Shown here: positions 1,153-55,211 of the stretch, in pieces | Position numbering within the stretch: position 1 is the first letter of the stretch | How the letters are laid out: the number at the start of each line of letters is the position of its first letter | Source of the DNA: Octopus sinensis | Lineage: Eukaryota | Direction: 5' to 3' | DNA length: 64,000 bases | NCBI RefSeq assembly: GCF_006345805.1 | Contig: NC_042999.1 | Span: 80,662,001-80,726,000, forward strand | Notes under the pieces: generated by a model | Databases searched by the model: none | What the model saw: only the letters and a program-made list of their open reading frames with translations | What the model was told of the DNA's origin: nothing | Program-made: the position numbers and the translations under genes

Positions 1153-1220
<68 letters not shown>

Positions 1221-1222
<2 letters not shown>

Positions 1223-1719
1223 ATAGAAATATTAAAATAACTAAGTCTCTCTAAAAGAGAACAGCGGCAGCGTTCCCGGAAAATAATAGTTATCGCCATA
1301 CTAATATGGCATTCTTATAAAAATAAGAAAAAAGCTGTCCGCTTATTAGCTCCATGAGGCCATCGCCTTAAGTTAGCTATTTGATACACAAATTGTATCC
1401 ATATAAACTTCGAACAAGGGAGGTCAGTCGCTCCACACTACTTGACCGGCAGCTACAGACGCGTTTCGGGGTATTGCCCCTTTTCAATGAAGCGTAGCCA
1501 GCCAGTAGGTGTCGCTTCCGACAATCTCTGTTCGATGGTTTTATTTACCTAGTTTCGGTGGAATACATCCACTTGTTTTCAATAATAGAAGTATTAAAAT
1601 AACTAAGTCTCTCTAAAAGAGAACAGCGGCAGCGTTCCCGGAAAATAATAGTTATCGCCATACTAATATGGCATTCTTATAAAAATAAGAAAAAAGCTGT
1701 CCGCTTATTAGCTCCATGA
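1221..1719 (-). mobile_element. Retrozyme-like tandem repeat family A, 362-bp unit, about 1.4 copies
   Basis: taatagaa.tattaaaataactaag at 1221 and 1583; abuts (TA)n; many hairpins; contains a hammerhead. Confidence 0.85.
1452..1498 (-). ncRNA. Minimal type-I hammerhead ribozyme, U3-A8 variant
   Basis: Minus strand GCTA(cgctt)CA-TTGAAAA-GGGG(caata)CCCC-GAAA-CGCG-TC^TGTAGC. Confidence 0.75.

Positions 1720-3408: not shown

Positions 3409-3452
<44 letters not shown>
3300..3452. repeat. (CAT)n/(TAT)n microsatellite
   Basis: Direct reading. Confidence 0.95.
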
Positions 3453-3453
<1 letters not shown>

Positions 3454-4205
3454 TCTTCGTAACATAGTGTAGGTAAAGTCACAACAAGGACGTCTGACAG
3501 ATGATGTTTTCATTAAGATGTTCGCTGTGCCCAATAAGCCTGCTTTTTGCAAGACATCAATCTTGCAAGGGATTCCTAGTTGCCTTAACAGGACTTGAAG
3601 TTTCAACGTCCCGATCATCACTGGTATCACTTTTACATTACCCTCTCGCATTCCATACAGTCTTGCTATTTCCACTTTCAATTCGGAGTAATTGATGATT
3701 TTTTCAACCACTTTATTCACAACATTCATGTCATTTGGTATGGCTAAATCAATGATCTGCCAGTATTTGTCTCTCATATTCTAATATGATAATATCCGGC
3801 CGATAGATACGTCTGAAAATCATAGTCTCATAGTCTCACTGTATAACGCTCCTGTTCCTCATCTTAACAGCCCTATCACCATTTCCCTGTTCCTCCTGCC
3901 TACTCTTCTCCTTGCTTTCAACTCCGACCATCCTGTGTAACCCATCCGCAGGGTCTCTCAGACTCTCAGTAATCCGAGATTTTTCTACTCCAGTTAAGTA
4001 ACTCTTCCTCCTAATTACTCTCACTTGGTTCATTAGTTTCCTTCTGACATTGGACACGTCCTTTTCCATCCAAAATTTCAACGTACGTCACCCTACTCCA
4101 TGACTTTTTTCCAGCTTTGCTCTTTCATAACATTCAATAAGTGTATCGTACTCCTCATTCGTTCACTTATATCTGTTTTGCGCACACTGTGTATGTGATC
4201 TGTTG
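3453..4205 (-). mobile_element. Internally deleted R4/Dong-type non-LTR retrotransposon (N-terminal region fused to RLE C-terminus)
   Basis: Minus strand RPDI..., IIDLAIPNDMNV..K..EKI.NY.ELKVEIARL...VIPVMIG...LQKAGLLGTANIL is an RLE endonuclease end; MKFWMEK...LMNQVRVI is Dong-like N-terminus; flanked by (TAA)n/(TGA)n tracts. Confidence 0.8.
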
Positions 4206-6768: not shown

Positions 6769-6818
<50 letters not shown>

Positions 6819-7004
6819 GTATATATATATAAAATTAATAGTTATCGCCATACTTAAATGGTAGTCGTATAAATATAAGACTAAAGCTGTCGCTGATTAG
6901 CTCCAAGAGGCCACCGCCTCAAGCTAGCTATTTGACATACAACCTGCTTTCATTATAAACTTTCGAACAGGGGAGGTCAGCCGCTTCATCCTGCCAGTCA
7001 GACA

Positions 7005-7047
7005 GCTGCAGACATGTTTCAGGGTATTTGCCCTTTATCAATGCAGC
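7005..7047 (-). ncRNA. Minimal type-I hammerhead ribozyme (U3-A8), intact
   Basis: GCTGCA-TTGATAA-AGGG(caaata)CCCT-GAAA-CATG-TC^TGCAGC. Confidence 0.85.
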
Positions 7048-7369
7048 GTACTCAGACCCAGCAGGTGTCGCTACTGACTGTCCCTGTTCGAAGAATCTAT
7101 TTACCTAGTTTCAGTGGAATATATCCACTTGCTTTCAATAATAGAAATATTAAAATTACAAAGTCTCTCTAAAGGAGATCACGGCAGCGTTACTGGAAAT
7201 TAATAGTTATCGCCATATTTATATGGCAGTCTTATAAATATAAGACTAAAGCTGTCGCTGATTAGCTCCAAGAGGCCACCGCCTCAAGCTAGCTATTTGA
7301 CACACAACCTGCGTCCATTATAAACTTTCGAACAGGGGTGGTCAGCCCCTTCATCCTGCCAGTCAGACA

Positions 7370-7412
7370 GCTGCAGACATGTTTGAGGGTATTTGCCCTT
7401 TATCAATGCAGC
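7370..7412 (-). ncRNA. Hammerhead copy with G12C (GAAA to CAAA), predicted inactive
   Basis: Plus strand reads gtttgaggg where the sister copies read gtttcaggg. Confidence 0.75.
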
Positions 7413-7733
7413 GTATTCAGACCCAGCAGGTGTCGCTACTGACTGTCCCTGTTCGAAGAATCTATTTACCTATTTTTCTGGAATACATCCACTTGTTTTC
7501 AATAATAGAAATATTAAAATTACTAAGTCTCTCTAAAGGAGATTACGGCAGCGTTACTGGAAATTAGTAGTTATCGCCATACTTATATGGCAGTCGTATA
7601 AATATAAGACTAAAGCTGTCGCCGATTAGCTCCAAGAGGCCACCGCCTCAAGCTAGCTATTTGACACGCAACCTGCATCCATTATAAACTTTCGAACAGG
7701 GGAGGTCAGCCGCTTCATCCTGCCAGTCAGACA

Positions 7734-7776
7734 GCTGCAGACATGTTTCAGGGTATTTGCCCTTTATCAATGCAGC
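7734..7776 (-). ncRNA. Minimal type-I hammerhead ribozyme (U3-A8), intact
   Basis: Identical motif to 7005-7047. Confidence 0.85.
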
Positions 7777-8022
7777 GTAGTCAGACCCAGCAGGTGTCGC
7801 TATTGACTGTCCCTGTTCGAAGAATCTATTTACGAAGGTTTATAATTGACGCAGGTTGTATGTCAAATAGCTAGCTTGAGGCGGTGGCCTCTTCGAGCTA
7901 ATCAGCGACAGCTTTAGTCTTATATTAATAAGACTGCCATATAAGTATGGCGATAACTATTAATTTCCAGTAACGCTGCCGTAATCTCCTTTAGAGAGAC
8001 TTAGTAATTTTAATATTTCTAT

Positions 8023-8089
<67 letters not shown>

Positions 8090-8139
8090 ACACACACACA
8101 CACACACATATATATATAATATATATATATATATATGTT

Positions 8140-8208
8140 TGGCTGAAGAAGGTAAAGTAAATATGGGTGAGAGACATATCTTGCAAAACCTGAAACCTGC
8201 AGGTACCA
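8140..8208 (+). ncRNA. Type-I hammerhead ribozyme with extended stem II and palindromic stem III
   Basis: TGG-CTGAAGA-AGGT..GTAA-ATATG..CATAT-c-TTGC..ACCT-GAA-ACCTGCAGGT-A^CCA. Confidence 0.8.
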
Positions 8209-8577
8209 CATTATCCATTTTCCGGGTGTTTCATCTTTCAGATGTTCTCCCTGGCGGTAAGACGGTTTTTTTTTTTTTTTTCTCTATTTTGTTGCACACA
8301 CGCATTTTTACTAATACATACGCGGTGAAGCTACACTTTAGCGTCGTATTTTTACGTTCGCTATTTCCAGTAAATATCGGTACTTTGTTGTGCCATTTAT
8401 TTACTAATTTGTGTATTTTTCCCTCACGGGCTACTTTTTACTGGAAGGCAATACTTTGTATTGCATTACTGATATTTGAAACTTCTTCACCGTTTCTCGT
8501 ACTGTTAGCGTTCCGTATTTCAGTCGAGTGTGTTAGTATTTATGTGGTAACATCGTAGTTTCGTCTTGGTATACGTT

Positions 8578-8646
8578 TGGCTGAAGAAGGTAAAGTAAAT
8601 ATGGGTGAGAGACATATCTTGCAAAACCTGAAACCTGCAGGTACCA
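8578..8646 (+). ncRNA. Type-I hammerhead ribozyme, second copy of family B
   Basis: Identical to 8140-8208. Confidence 0.8.
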
Positions 8647-8850
8647 CATTATCCATTTTCCGGGTGTTTCATCTTTCAGATGTTCTCCCTGGAGGTAAGA
8701 CGGTTTTTTTTTTTTTTTTTCTCTATTTTGTTGCACACACGCATTTTTACTAATACATACGCGGTGAAGCTACACTTTAGCGTCGTATTTTTACGTTCGC
8801 TATTTCCAGTAAATATCGGTACTTTGTTGTGCCATTTATTTACTAATTTG

Positions 8851-8883
<33 letters not shown>

Positions 8884-26559: not shown

Positions 26560-27118
26560 TGTCAACTCAACCCTGTCAGACAAACTTAAGAGGAATGTTT
26601 TCTGTGTAAGAGTCGTGCCAGTGATTTTATATGGAGCCTAGCATGGACGCTTACTGAAAAGCGGGAATCCAAGCTAGATGGAACTAACACTCACAGTGTT
26701 AAACATAACTCATCCCTCCAATGGACAACTGTATAGAGATTTCCTACATGTTTCCACCAATATAAGGTAGAGACGCTTGCGTTTAACAAGATATTGTTGG
26801 TGCACTAAACATGACCTGGCAAGTGACTTACTACTATAGATGCCAAAAATACATGATCATATAGTATATTGTAATATTAAGGAAATGCATACACTTAGAT
26901 GGAACTAACACTCACAGTGTTAAACATAACACATCCCTCCAAGGGACAACTGTATAGAGATTTCCTACATGTTTCCACCAATATAAGGTAGAGACGCTTG
27001 CGTTTAACAAGATATTGTTGGTGCACTAAACATGACCTGGCAAGTGACTTACTACTATAGATGCCAAAAATACATGATCATATAGTATATTGTAATATTA
27101 AGGAAATGCATACACTTA
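26560..27118 (+). mobile_element. LINE 3' coding remnant (RTE-X/L2-like) with a 221-bp local tandem duplication (26675-27118)
   Basis: SKLDGT...RRLRLTRYCW..KHDLASDLLL; tagatggaactaac at 26675 and 26896. Confidence 0.6.
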
Positions 27119-33699: not shown

Positions 33700-36399
33700 A
33701 TATTAGAAATTGCTGTCTTGGAACAGCAAAACTGGGCCGGTCAAGGGGTTGAGATTTTAATCCAGGCAAATCAGAACACAATAAAATATCACTCAGATTT
33801 AATAAAGCTACCGTATGGCACAACCCTACATATCACCGTTGAGGACAGAAGGCCACGTTGCTACCTTTTCGGTAGCCAATACCATTTAAAACAGACTGAA
33901 AATTGATAGAACAATAAAAGCAACAAGAACAGCAAAACCAGAATTCCAAGAGCAAACCAGCACCACCATCAGCACAAACAAAGGTGCAGCTCCACGATTA
34001 GATGAAAGAACTACTCAAAATACCCAAACAAATCAGCCAACCCAAGAAGTGACCACCACCGACAACAGAAGCAAAACCACCACCACCACCAACAACAGCC
34101 ACAGAAGTACCGAACCCTGAAAAGGTAAAAAAGGACCAACAACCCATTTATCACATCCCAATAACCATCAACTAACACCACCAACAACAACAACATCAAG
34201 AACAACACACTCACAAATTTATCCCAATACCCTTCCCTTTCCTTCCTCTGATTCCTCCGACATGTCGATACAGAAGAATAGCAAATGGCCACTGGGGTGG
34301 GGGAGAAAAGGAGTAAAGAATAGAAGTACACGCACTCAAACAAAGCAAGGAAGTCTACTGCTCTCGAGAACAAAACTATCTCACAAACACACACACATTA
34401 CCACCAATACTGCAAACACAAGCATCAAATGGCCCCACAATGTTGACAGTAATAAACACATACAATTCATACCTAATGCAATTCATTGGGTCAAAGACCA
34501 ACATAACAGAAGACAATATCAAAAATGTCAAAGATTGTGAGTTGGACAACAACCAACTTTCGAACAGTAAGTGACTCTCCCTCCCTCTCTCCCTCTCTCT
34601 CTGTCTCTGTCTCTCTCATTCTTTCATTTTTCTTTCGTGTGTAAAGCACAAATTTTGATAGGCTCATGCTTAGAATAGGTTGCATAATTATGAGTGGCTT
34701 GGGGTCGCCTTCCAAACAAGGCTACCTGTTAAATGACATCAAATCACAGAATCTGCATATCATAGCCACCAATGAGATCAGACTGCATGACCCGTGGGCC
34801 CTCCAGCACATGCTCAGCGGACAATTCGACATTTATTTTTCTCCGTGTCTGTCGAGAATGGGCGGAGTTAGTACCGCGGTGCTTTTCCGGAAGAGTCTGA
34901 CCCTCCAAATAAAAGCAGTATTCCTAGACCCAGAGGGTAGGCTGGTCGTCTTGGATGTCCATGCCAATAATGGGTGAGCTTTTCGACTGATAACAGTTAC
35001 CGTCTTTAATAGGTCGCCAGATTTCTTTCGATATTTAGAGATTTTCCTGGGAACGTCTCGACCTTTACTTTTAGTGGGAGATTGGAACGCTACCTTGGAC
35101 ACGCATCTAGACTACGTGGATAGAGATAGGAATAGGAGGTGATGTAAAAGCGTCAAAGACCTGCTCAGACGTTTACAACTGTCTGACAGGTACCGATTGG
35201 ACCAGCCGAATGTGCCAATGTGGACATGGAGCAACTGCATCGGGTCGTCCAAATCGTATTTAGATATAGTATTATGTAGAGGAGTGGATAGGGATAGTGT
35301 AGGTTGTCCACAATTGGTGGACTCGTGTGAAAGCTTTAGAGACAAGCAGTTTCCTCTCTAGCCTATCTCTCATCAACTCATCACCCTACTCCTCCAGGAA
35401 TCGATCCCAATGCCAACCCTAGAATAGCACAAATATGCATCCAGGAGCCACAACCCTACACCCAGTCTCCATCCAGTGAAGATGACTTTTTAATAATAGA
35501 TACGCGTAGAAAGAAATTGACCTGAGGGAGAAGGGATGATTTTGTCAACAGAAAAAATAACTGATGGAGAAAACGTAAGTTGTAAAAGATTTTGATATAT
35601 AAGAGACTATTGCAGATAAAAGAAGGATGAAATTGGTAAGGTGGTGTTAGTAATGCGGTCGCCAGAGATGAGGGGCCTCTGGAAGCCGCCAACCTTCCCC
35701 ACCTTACATTTAAAAAAAAAAAGAATAAAATTGACAAAATTTGAAATTCAGGACTAATTGTAAAAGGTTCAATGATTTCACTCGAAGTGTGGGCTTTGAG
35801 CGGCCGTCATTCTTCATTCTCTCTTTTCATCTTCTCATTCGTCTTGTTTTTTCCCCCAAATATATCTTGTCTGTCCTTGTGTCGTCCCCTCTATGTTGAG
35901 CCTTTATGGCGTGTTTAGAAATAAAATAAAAGGTTAAATTATCCCACTACTTTCAATGTATAGGAAGTAATCGTCATTGAAAGTGTCTTCAGCTGCATAT
36001 AATAGTGGGATCGGTTATAGTATTTTCATGCCAATCAATTACAAAACTCTCCTACAAATTTACCAATATCTGTAATAGCAAGGTTGTAACTAAAATGGAC
36101 AAATATTTTCTCAGAAACAATTTTCAAGAATGCTAACTGTCAACCGATTTAAGGAGTATTTTATTATTTTGCTGTCTTTGATTCATCCTATTTCTTAACC
36201 GATTAATTTGGATTTTTCATGATTTGGGATATGACATATGTGATTTTTTGCTTTATCTATGGTGTACTAATGAAATAATAATATCATCTTCATCGAGGAT
36301 CATATATTTTGTGAAAAAAAAAAGGATAGTTCACCAAATCAATTTATACATAGACCTGACAAGTGGATATTTCATATATTATGCAATAATGTGAATGTG

Positions 36400-43387: not shown

Positions 43388-45676
43388 CCATATACATACG
43401 TATATAAATGTATGTATATATATAGATAGACATGTGTATTATACATTTAAAAAATATATACGCGTATATATAGATATATCATGTTCTGATGTACGTTAGG
43501 TTTTATATATGTACACACATACACACGCACACACACACACACGCACACACATACACATGCACATAAACACATATGAATATACGTAGCTATTTATTCAATG
43601 TAATCAAACATAGGTGTAAGGTTTTCTCTTCGTCTGTATATGAAACATTTTATTCACTTTTTCAAAAGACAATTGTCTTTGATTTGATATTGCTGAAAAT
43701 AAGATACCATAGACAGAATATGTAATGTCAAACGAATACGTTTGAATCATCGTACTTTCATTTAACTTTATGTCTGAAGCAATTGCAGCGTCATATTTAG
43801 TGCAAATCTTACATACATCAAATCGTATCCATTGTTTGATCTATACAAATTTTTCACATTTGCATTCCTGCTGTTTGGGCAGTTAACTACAGATTTTGCA
43901 TTACGGTATATTACCGCTATAGCTGTTTTATTTTACTTCACTTTTTTGTTCTATAATACCAAGATATTGAGACATAATATCCATGACAAAAAAATAGTTG
44001 CTTTCAAAATACCAGAAATCAGAATGTATACTTTTGTCATTACTCTTCCGTTTTGTGTAGAAACATTGCAACATCTCTGGACGTTGATTGCGATATATAT
44101 ATATCTAGTCAATCCAAATAAGAACCAGCAAGAAAAACCAACAAAGCTAAGACGTGGAAGTATGTGTTATTGTACGTTGAGGAAAGGAAGGAAAAGAAAG
44201 AGGACTTCATGTTTCGAGCGGCTCTTCATCAGAAATATAGAAACAGTCCAAAGAAGGGAAGACGGAGGAACAAAATCGCCAACAATACACGCACACGCAC
44301 GCGCGCACACACACACACACCACACATATATATATATATATATATACATATATATAAACACTGATACAAAGACATACACATGATTACATATACATATACA
44401 TACATACACACACACACACACACACGCACACACACATATATAAACATTGATACAAAGACATACACATGTATACATATACATACACATACATACACACACT
44501 CAACACACACACAACACACACACACACAACACACACACACACAATATATATATATATATCCATATACATACGTATATAAATGTATGTATATATATAGATA
44601 GACATGTGTATTATACATTTAAAAAATATATACGCGTATATATAGATATATCATGTTCTGATGTACGTTAGGTTTTATATATGTACACACATACACACGC
44701 ACACACACACACACACGCACACACATACACATGCACATAAACACATATGAATATACGTAGCTATTTATTCAATGTAATCAAACATAGGTGTAAGGTTTTC
44801 TCTTCGTCTGTATATGAAACATTTTATTCACTTTTTCAAAAGACAATTGTCTTTGATTTGATATTGCTGAAAATAAGATACCATAGACAGAATATGTAAT
44901 GTCAAACGAATACGTTTGAATCATCGTACTTTCATTTAACTTTATGTCTGAAGCAATTGCAGCGTCATATTTAGTGCAAATCTTACATACATCAAATCGT
45001 ATCCATTCTTTGATCTATACAAATTTTTCACATTTGCATTCCTGCTGTTTGGGCAGTTAACTACAGATTTTGCATTACGGTATATTACCGCTATAGCTGT
45101 TTTATTTTACTTCACTTTTTTGTTCTATAATACCAAGATATTGAGACATAATATCCATGACAAAAAAATAGTTGCTTTCAAAATACCAGAAATCAGAATG
45201 TATACTTTTGTCATTACTCTTCCGTTTTGTGTAGAAACATTGCAACATCTCTGGACGTTGATTGCGATATATATATATCTAGTCAATCCAAATAAGAACC
45301 AGCAAGAAAAACCAACAAAGCTAAGACGTGGAAGTATGTGTTATTGTACGTTGAGGAAAGGAAGGAAAAGAAAGAGGACTTCATGTTTCGAGCGGCTCTT
45401 CATCAGAAATATAGAAACAGTCCAAAGAAGGGAAGACGGAGGAACAAAATCGCCAACAATACACGCACACGCACGCGCGCACACACACACACACACACAT
45501 ACATACATATATATATATACATATATATATAAACACTGATACAAAGACATACACATGATTACATATACATATACATACATACACACACACACACACACAC
45601 GCACACACACATATATAAACATTGATACAAAGACATACACATGTATACATATACATACACATACATACACACACTC

Positions 45677-49127: not shown

Positions 49128-49745
49128 TCTATATATATAAATATTTGACATAGGCGATTCTTTCTATTCTTGCGATTCACGGTCAAACGGTTGGGTGGAA
49201 TTGCGCAAAAAATTACACAGATGTGTAGAATGATCCATTCGTGATGCTGGGCTTTGTATTTTTCATAGCTCCCATGGTTACCGAGATAATCTACTATAAT
49301 ATTATTCTTGTGTTTATGAATGGGAAAGGAAGGAGTGATACATGAATAAGGAAGGAAGGGGTCGTGTCATAATTTTTCATCGCTGCCATGGTTACCGAGA
49401 TAATCTAATATAATAATACTCTTGTGTTTATCAGTGAGAAAGGAAGGGGTGGTACATGAATAAGGAAGGAAGGGGTGATGTCATACTTGGTAGTGTACGC
49501 TGAACTTAATAAATCAAATTGCGTTTCAACTCTGCAAGAATATGTGTTTGTATGAAAAAGGGTGTGTGCATGCAATGGAAGTGGGATGGTTCATCTTTGT
49601 TCGCTTAGTATTTGGGTTTCTTTTTTTGATTTGGTTGAATCTTGGTTGGTTTTTCTTGTTGGTCAGTTATTTTTAGTGTTTTGACAGAAAAATCATTCTA
49701 AAATTGTTTTTTTAACGTAAGCGTGCACAAACAAGTCGTATGCTT
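49128..49745 (+). mobile_element. Possible non-autonomous Helitron with internal tandem repeat of about 114 bp (49255-49490)
   Basis: Starts A|TCTATATATATAAAA; ccatggttaccgagataatct at 49272 and 49386; 3' end not found. Confidence 0.35.
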
Positions 49746-54024: not shown

Positions 54025-54419
54025 CAAAAAAATACAGTGTCATTGCACACGAATGAAAGACACGTTCAAAAAATTATACTTTAGAAAATTATATCTTAAC
54101 ACCTCAGTATTGTAGCCATTCCCGTAGCACTTTACAGTTGCTATATGCTCAAATGGAGTCTAAGAAACTAGTCTAGACAGAAACTTACAATGTTACAATT
54201 TACAACATTTAAAATAGACCAAAATAATACAGTGTCATTGCACACGAATGAAAGACACGTTCAAAAAATTATACTTTAGAAAATTATATCTTAACACCTC
54301 AGTATTGTAGCCATTCCCGTAGCACTTTACAGTTGCTATATGCTCACATGGAGTCTAAGAAACTAGTCTAGACAGAAACACACAATGTTACAATTTACAA
54401 CATTTAAAATAGACCAAAA
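54025..54419. repeat. 195-bp local tandem duplication
   Basis: aatacagtgtcattgcac at 54031 and 54226. Confidence 0.9.
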
Positions 54420-55211
54420 ATAAAAAAAATATGTAGTGTCTTTCCCATATGCCGATAATTTCCTCCACCGCCTCTGTACACTATGCTTCACAATGTTCAT
54501 CGTTTGCATATGCCGATAATTTCCTCCAGCCACAGACTTTGTACACCATGATTCGCACTGTTCCAGTTCCTGGAGAACTAGAAAAAGAGATTCAGTAAAT
54601 ATAGTTGAGATCAGTAAAGACAAAGCTAGCGTATGAAAGAATAAATTTCGATAGGTAATCATTTAGTTTGGTCACAGATGAGATGCTTCTATATACTGAG
54701 GCACTCCAGTCTCTAAAACTCGGTACGACTAACAACTGCACGGAAAATAAAACACAAAATATCAATGAATTTCCTGAAGAAAGCTTCCGATCGCTGCAAA
54801 TTTGATCAAATCTTCACCGGCGCCTGTGTACTACCCATCCTTTCTGTGATCTATCTTAGGCTGGAGATTGCCATGGATACTTTATCAGATAAAGAAGAAT
54901 CCTGATAGAAAAAGATCATCCGTATATCAAGAGAGAAAAGAGCTTCTAACTGATCATCAAATGTGAACGTCAACGACAAAATGCAATTATCGCGTAACTG
55001 TTGAAAATGGCTAAAAGAATATTAGATCTAAAAAGTCCTAAATGAGGACTACAAAATCAATATCTATTGAACTGAGTTAATGGAGTATGCTGAATTGTTT
55101 CCAGAGAGATATCATCAGATCAGGTGTTAAATTTGTGCTTGTATATATGTATATATATATATATATTATATGTTTGCATATATATGTATATGTATGTATA
55201 TGTATGTATAT

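Follow-up and report, generated by a model that had tools for sequence, protein, structure and literature searches.

The window analysed here, a 64,000-nt stretch of the Octopus sinensis genome (2.7 Gb), carries at 6832-8024 an insertion of a repeat, named family A, in which each unit holds a hammerhead ribozyme motif. It raises the question of how such a non-coding sequence was copied into its present site, by which enzyme and from which RNA. In our reading, which we consider probable, the insertion is a non-LTR retrozyme with Penelope-type ends, likely copied into (TA)n by the RT-endonuclease of a Penelope-like element (PLE) from a circular or uncut multimeric RNA, the U3-A8 hammerhead being predicted to cleave as a dimer. 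Animal retrozymes, their link to PLEs and the U3-A8 pair in PLE hammerheads are already published; the mobilising enzyme and the template of animal retrozymes are posed as open questions in PMC7229834 and bioRxiv 10.64898/2026.07.22.740005.

The insertion and its hammerhead motifs

The features of the insertion, and of a second family A copy found in the window, are the following.

6806..6831, strand unassigned: (TA)n tract bordering the 3' end of arm 1, putative target (sequence)
6832..7833, minus strand: arm 1, subfamily A1, 2.75 units of 364/365 bp placed head to tail (repeat comparison)
7005..7047, minus strand: hammerhead 3, intact (motif reading)
7320..7460, minus strand: long predicted hairpin with the hammerhead at its tip (unit 2 shown, recurring in units 1 and 3; folding)
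7370..7412, minus strand: hammerhead 2, like hammerhead 1 but with G12C at 7385 (motif reading)
7734..7776, minus strand: hammerhead 1, with stem I, U3-A8 core, stem II with CAAAUA loop, and palindromic stem III (motif reading)
7833..8024, plus strand: arm 2, inverted and 5'-truncated, covering unit positions 46-238 up to the long site L (repeat comparison)
8023..8061, strand unassigned: (TA)n tract bordering the 3' end of arm 2, putative target (sequence)
1220..1719, minus strand: separate, young insertion of 1.4 units, subfamily A2 (99% to another locus of A2), ending at L against (TA)n (sequence comparison)

A preliminary description had presented 6832..8024 as a 365-bp tandem, which holds for the 2.75 units of 6832-7833 but not for 7833-8024, the inverted truncated arm. 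Arm 1 has its 5' end at unit position 272 and its 3' end at the short site S, about 179 nt beyond the cleavage site; with arm 1 ending at S and arm 2 at L, the insertion obeys the S+L rule described below. That description mentioned neither the inverted arm nor the G12C of the middle ribozyme, and it left out the stem III palindrome and the PLE insertion marks.

The A1 hammerhead is made up of stem I (GCUGCA/UGCAGC), the core UUGAUAA, stem II (AGGG/CCCU) with loop CAAAUA, GAAA, the palindromic ACAUGU and C17. On the minus strand, the core of the three type I motifs lies at 7770-7764, 7406-7400 and 7041-7035, and C17 at 7740, 7376 and 7011, giving a spacing of 364 and 365 nt; cutting is predicted after C17, at 7740 in hammerhead 1 and at 7011 in hammerhead 3. 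Stem II has 4 bp, and stem III consists of 2 bp round a 2-nt loop and is palindromic. Stem I, with 6 bp, had been called perfect, and is so in all three motifs of 7005-7776, but in the A2 copy it carries a U.U mismatch plus a G-U pair. The latter copy has a single hammerhead (1493-1452) with the core UUGAAAA, which had been placed at 1452; it is present, but at 1487-1481, position 1452 being the end of its stem I. With UUGAUAA and UUGAAAA both found, the replacement of C3-G8 by U3-A8 in both subfamilies is confirmed.

As for the characters of a type I hammerhead (three stems, an open stem I, G12 A13 A14, A15.1-U16.1 and H17), units 1 and 3 possess them all, while unit 2 departs by G12C: it reads CAAA at 7385-7382, whereby a conserved catalytic base is lost, and from this sequence it is predicted to be inactive as the enzyme strand. 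The 3-8 Watson-Crick pair is provided by U3-A8, but the literal CUGANGA motif is absent. A strict descriptor gave two matches on the minus strand, none on the plus strand and none across 60 block shuffles of the window, the remaining copy, that of the middle unit, escaping it because of G12C. In Rfam, no hammerhead appeared among the five matches at E<=10 in 6850-7850, nor among the 150 matches listed, of 186, over the window; the other Rfam matches were judged to be microsatellite or chance.

The assignment of the RNA to the minus strand stands, being fixed by the core itself, and five pairs vary there between G-C and G-U or between A-U and G-U; folding energy separates the strands weakly (-65.1 vs -61.1 kcal/mol). 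Folding of the 141-nt hairpin gave a z of -5.3, with 0 of 200 shuffles equally stable, and the predicted family A circle is highly paired (z -5.7 to -7.3).

Concerning the rest of the window, no host gene was evident by eye among its 43 ORFs of at least 110 aa. Two short frames, at 3409-3780 (minus strand) and 34645-34977 (plus strand), resemble LINE fragments by eye (C-terminal nuclease-like, AP-endonuclease-like). Tandem two-copy duplications at 26675-27118, 54025-54420 and 49258-49485 (221, 195 and 114 bp) contain no hammerhead with the descriptor used. Near-identical stretches about 1.17 kb apart, at 43778-44383 and 44952-45539, were noticed through their matching translations and represent a local duplication or an assembly artefact. 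Also, a retrozyme-like repeat with a 438-bp unit, family B, lies at 8138-8852 (plus strand) in the same microsatellite tract as the family A insertion. Its hammerhead is canonical in the core (CUGAAGA), with a long loop 2 and a palindromic stem III of 10 nt; the family counts 527 exact 25-mer matches in the genome, has two 3' ends about 62 nt apart and has a 10-nt motif in common with family A.

Family A across the genome

Family A is a non-coding repeat with a unit of about 362 nt. An 18-mer of this unit has 3,172 exact matches genome-wide, and the core pattern with positions 3 and 8 left free has 1,813, the reversed-pattern control giving 0 in each case. Among these 1,813 cores, 1,797 are U3-A8, four are C3-A8 and none is C3-G8 (12 others were not itemised); the pair is therefore fixed within the family, without covariation inside it. 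Covariation of positions 3 and 8 in a genome-wide consensus of the family, which the preliminary description had set as a check, is thus absent, U and A being constant. Its expectation that searches fixed on CUGANGA would overlook the family is borne out, such a descriptor and Rfam both missing a family of more than 1,800 cores. Between families of the genome the pair does differ: U3-A8 occurs in family A and several PLE families, and C3-G8 in family B and another PLE family. That U3-A8 is a tolerated rare variant agrees with its publication as an active natural covariation (PMC3088659). The idea of a retrozyme with a compensated U3-A8 core is hence sustained by the anatomy and the family-wide pattern, but the core variant itself was already published.

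Four subfamilies, 82-90% identical, were distinguished. Position 7, the free position of the core, is U, A or G according to subfamily, and the stem III palindrome shifts from ACAUGU to ACGCGU, both self-complementary. Across 25 distinct rows, pairing is preserved by double changes in three places: the stem II base, distal stem I and the outer helix. Because these compensatory changes amount to about four events between related subfamilies, and not to independent copies, shuffle counts are not probabilities. Several outer pairs are broken in one subfamily, and damage in the core or stem III affects at least 6 of 45 sampled hammerheads, including three of the four at one A3 locus. The loop 2 CAAAUA, a UAC bulge and an opposing U match the residues of the loop-loop contact as described for Schistosoma.

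The family thus has the characters of a non-LTR retrozyme, namely an ORF-less tandem unit of 150-450 bp, one type I hammerhead in each and many dispersed copies. Four contig sets, presumed to be RNA, cover the unit, contigs of this kind giving no strand, ends, level or circularity. A pattern scan of metagenomes yielded 88 loci, none extending into the hammerhead, which were set aside as chance matches.

Insertion ends, template and mobilising enzyme

The arms of family A insertions were analysed at 59 loci taken in order along contig C1. This sample, which excludes three listed clusters, is conditioned on the exact 18-mer and hence leans to young copies; it comprises 97 arms after dropping 4 of 101 rows (a duplicated pair at L107 and two 24-nt strays). 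As a whole, 89 of the 97 arms end at one of two sites 60 nt apart, S (about 175-179 nt beyond the cut site) or L (about 237 nt). Thirty-six insertions are inverted, and all 31 with two standard ends combine one S and one L, the other five having a non-standard end. A (TA)4 lies within 20 nt of 75 of the 89 3' ends, vs. a background of 7%. Copies are dispersed and 5'-truncated, with random 5' ends; 23 of 89 arms are longer than one unit, and some arrays reach 7-8 units. The insertion marks of a non-autonomous PLE are therefore present: a tail (two 3' ends), 5' truncation, partial tandems, an inverted 5' arm and a microsatellite target. The same marks (partial tandems, inverted 5' arm, one-end tail and microsatellite bias) are described for EN+ PLEs (PMC8557442, PMC3846280), and with a purified PLE the RT starts at two internal sites whose distance apart is the length of the tail, both DNA strands being cut and extended (PMC11167929).

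As regards the template, the cut site is traversed by 44 of the 49 arms that reach it, 13 of them traversing it twice or more; a cleaved linear monomer was therefore not the main template, which was likely a circular or uncut RNA. There was no significant pile-up of 5' ends at the cut site (positions 1-12 contain five stops, 2.0 times the mean; P 0.11). An excess of 5' ends is seen at positions 29-55, where the ribozyme hairpin has its foot (3.0 times the mean; P 2e-5, for a window picked post hoc), suggesting that the hairpin forms in the RNA. Divergence in the young subfamily A2 is 1.1% between pieces of the same locus and 1.15% between opposite arms, compared with 2.3% from one locus to another; such distances, as far as sequence comparison goes, fit one template sequence for both arms, circle and homogeneous multimer both being compatible. 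For A1 and A1b, which are older, pieces of one locus are about as distant from each other as from those of other loci. Circle and uncut homogeneous multimer predict an identical DNA pattern.

An uncut multimer is also the template in a competing explanation, which we hold to be unlikely. Family A would then be a PLE-driven non-autonomous element with a slow or idle hammerhead, templated by uncut linear multimers from tandem source loci, and no abundant circle would form. The free passage of arms through the cleavage site agrees with it, as do three published results: insertion by the purified PLE was unaffected by hammerhead mutants, with no reads ending at the cut site (PMC11167929), eight of nine predicted Xenopus dimers remained uncleaved (bioRxiv 10.64898/2026.07.22.740005) and PLE minimal hammerheads are weak in vitro (PMC4209133). 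However, the core has stayed constant over the four diverged subfamilies while position 7 varied, the stems were compensated and the palindrome was retained, and circles do form in mollusc, coral and axolotl retrozymes of like size (PMC7229834).

In the retrozyme reading that we prefer, two hammerheads of a multimeric transcript would join via their palindromic stem III and cleave after GUC, assisted by a Schistosoma-type contact between loop 1 and loop 2. The retention of a palindromic sequence in both states of stem III points to such dimeric cleavage, and 2 bp with a palindromic loop are a published sign of it (PMC4209133). The monomers would be ligated into circles, and a Neptune/Nematis-type PLE protein would nick both (TA)n strands and use S for priming on one and L on the other, which would leave the arms head to head. 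Copying round the circle would yield non-integer tandems, the RT frequently stalling at the foot of the ribozyme hairpin. More tentatively, one and the same circular retrozyme RNA might template both arms, a dimeric PLE protein nicking both (TA)n strands and priming once at S and once at L, so that each inverted copy would have one end of each kind.

A Neptune-type PLE is the most likely mobiliser. The genome holds intact RT + GIY-YIG ORFs in families of 781, 776 and 775 aa, whose linker is CxxC, of Neptune/Nematis type. UUGAUAA...GAAACAUGU is found in the 3' UTR of the 781-aa PLE, about 100 nt upstream of the 3' end, and this element has two 3' ends of its own against (TA)n (30 loci: 22 short, six long and two tandem junctions). 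Its inverted pairs are S+L in three of four cases and L+L in the fourth, and one of the two family B pairs is S+S; the S+L rule is therefore not universal. The tail measures about 60 nt in family A vs. about 36-40 nt in the autonomous PLE.

No extended similarity to family A was found in the PLEs retrieved, a small part of those present, the shared portion being the ribozyme core and stem III. A search by homology (PF01541 matches, a second endonuclease query and 36 longer stretches) returned several PLE families, none with the 3' sequence of family A, and tblastn with four PLE proteins detected no RT-EN ORF in register with the unit at 106 family A loci. In the PDB, no sequence match to the PLE protein was obtained. 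We thus infer the PLE partner by class and not by an identified element.

Several observations on these PLEs are added here. The 781-aa PLE (L061 674-2113; L065, C1:207473500-207479800) has an extra upstream ORF of 479 aa, which overlaps the RT-EN frame and gave no Pfam match over the cut-off. At L182-L191, a young 776-aa family has a 3' UTR passing into (CA/TG)-rich microsatellite-like sequence, and the descriptor found no hammerhead downstream of its ORF. For the 775-aa PLE, the 3' UTR of L068 shows a hammerhead-like motif with U4C, and L034 has a canonical core (by eye). Finally, L088 (1252-1877) is a single chimeric locus, in which a rearranged family A piece lies between 139-nt inverted arms that include a PLE N-terminal coding region.

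That an autonomous PLE outside those found has this unit as its pLTR, and that the loci are just the truncated ends of that element, is very improbable. All the end features are indeed PLE pLTR features, and PLE fragments occur at 6 of the 106 family A loci, but by coordinates none of the six lies in register upstream of the unit, the bare unit is repeated up to 7-8 times in arms, and the full-length PLEs retrieved have unrelated 3' UTRs. A satellite with a fossil hammerhead, its arrays growing as DNA through unequal crossover, can hardly be upheld: this route of array growth is proposed in bioRxiv 10.64898/2026.07.22.740005 and some arrays reach 7-8 units, but the dispersal of short arrays, their fixed 3' ends and random 5' ends, the inverted arms with S+L and the flanking (TA)n are marks of retrotransposition.

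For the questions of enzyme and template, family A displays the PLE insertion signature directly and in number (31/31 S+L), and the genome also encodes intact PLEs that share its ribozyme core. Both questions can be addressed in the published in vitro PLE assay, with an RNA of 362 nt and a protein of 781 aa. Should one circular RNA template both arms, as in the more tentative model above, the ORF-less family A, with thousands of copies, would be a natural read-out and minimal substrate for priming on two strands by PLEs, and the origin of its U3-A8 core would lie in the U3-A8 clade of Neptune-type PLEs found in this genome.

Comparison with known systems

In the literature searched, which included few subscription journals, no description of family A and no S+L count in a retrozyme was found; the supplement of PMC7229834 may list similar families. 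Animal retrozymes, their circles and PLEs as candidate helpers are treated in PMC7229834, and further passages on the subject are found in PMC2632901, PMC6155905, PMC7151607 and PMC13282606.

Like the animal non-LTR retrozymes of PMC7229834, family A is a GC-poor, non-coding tandem of 150-450 bp, in which each unit has one type I hammerhead, with thousands of copies and a highly paired predicted circle; mussel units measure 350-390 bp there, vs. about 362 nt here. Unlike them, as described in that paper, it has a family-wide U3-A8 pair, inserts with inverted arms and two fixed 3' ends, and has (TA)n as its target; the present description of it is from DNA.

With the Schistosoma mansoni PLE Cercyon (PMC4209133), family A shares the U3-A8 pair, the heptamers UUGAUAA and UUGAAAA reported in Schistosoma PLE hammerheads, and the palindromic stem III. 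For Cercyon, about 1,300 matches are reported, with minimal and mostly single hammerheads, whereas the fold of family A is canonical (6 bp/4 bp), with loop-loop residues, and lies in an ORF-less tandem unit.

The resemblance to EN+ PLEs (Neptune/Nematis) and to non-autonomous Chlamys elements such as MRC1 (PMC8557442, PMC3846280, PMC11167929) extends to 5' truncation, partial tandems, the inverted 5' arm, the one-end tail, microsatellite targets and two internal RT start sites; family A differs from EN+ PLEs in having no ORF and a tail of about 60 nt, vs. 30-40. As for the Xenopus retrozymes (bioRxiv 10.64898/2026.07.22.740005), their origin and mobilisation are likewise read as those of non-autonomous PLE derivatives. 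The Xenopus case is built on co-occurrence and pLTR homology, whereas that of family A, with no pLTR homology seen in the PLEs retrieved, is built on insertion anatomy.
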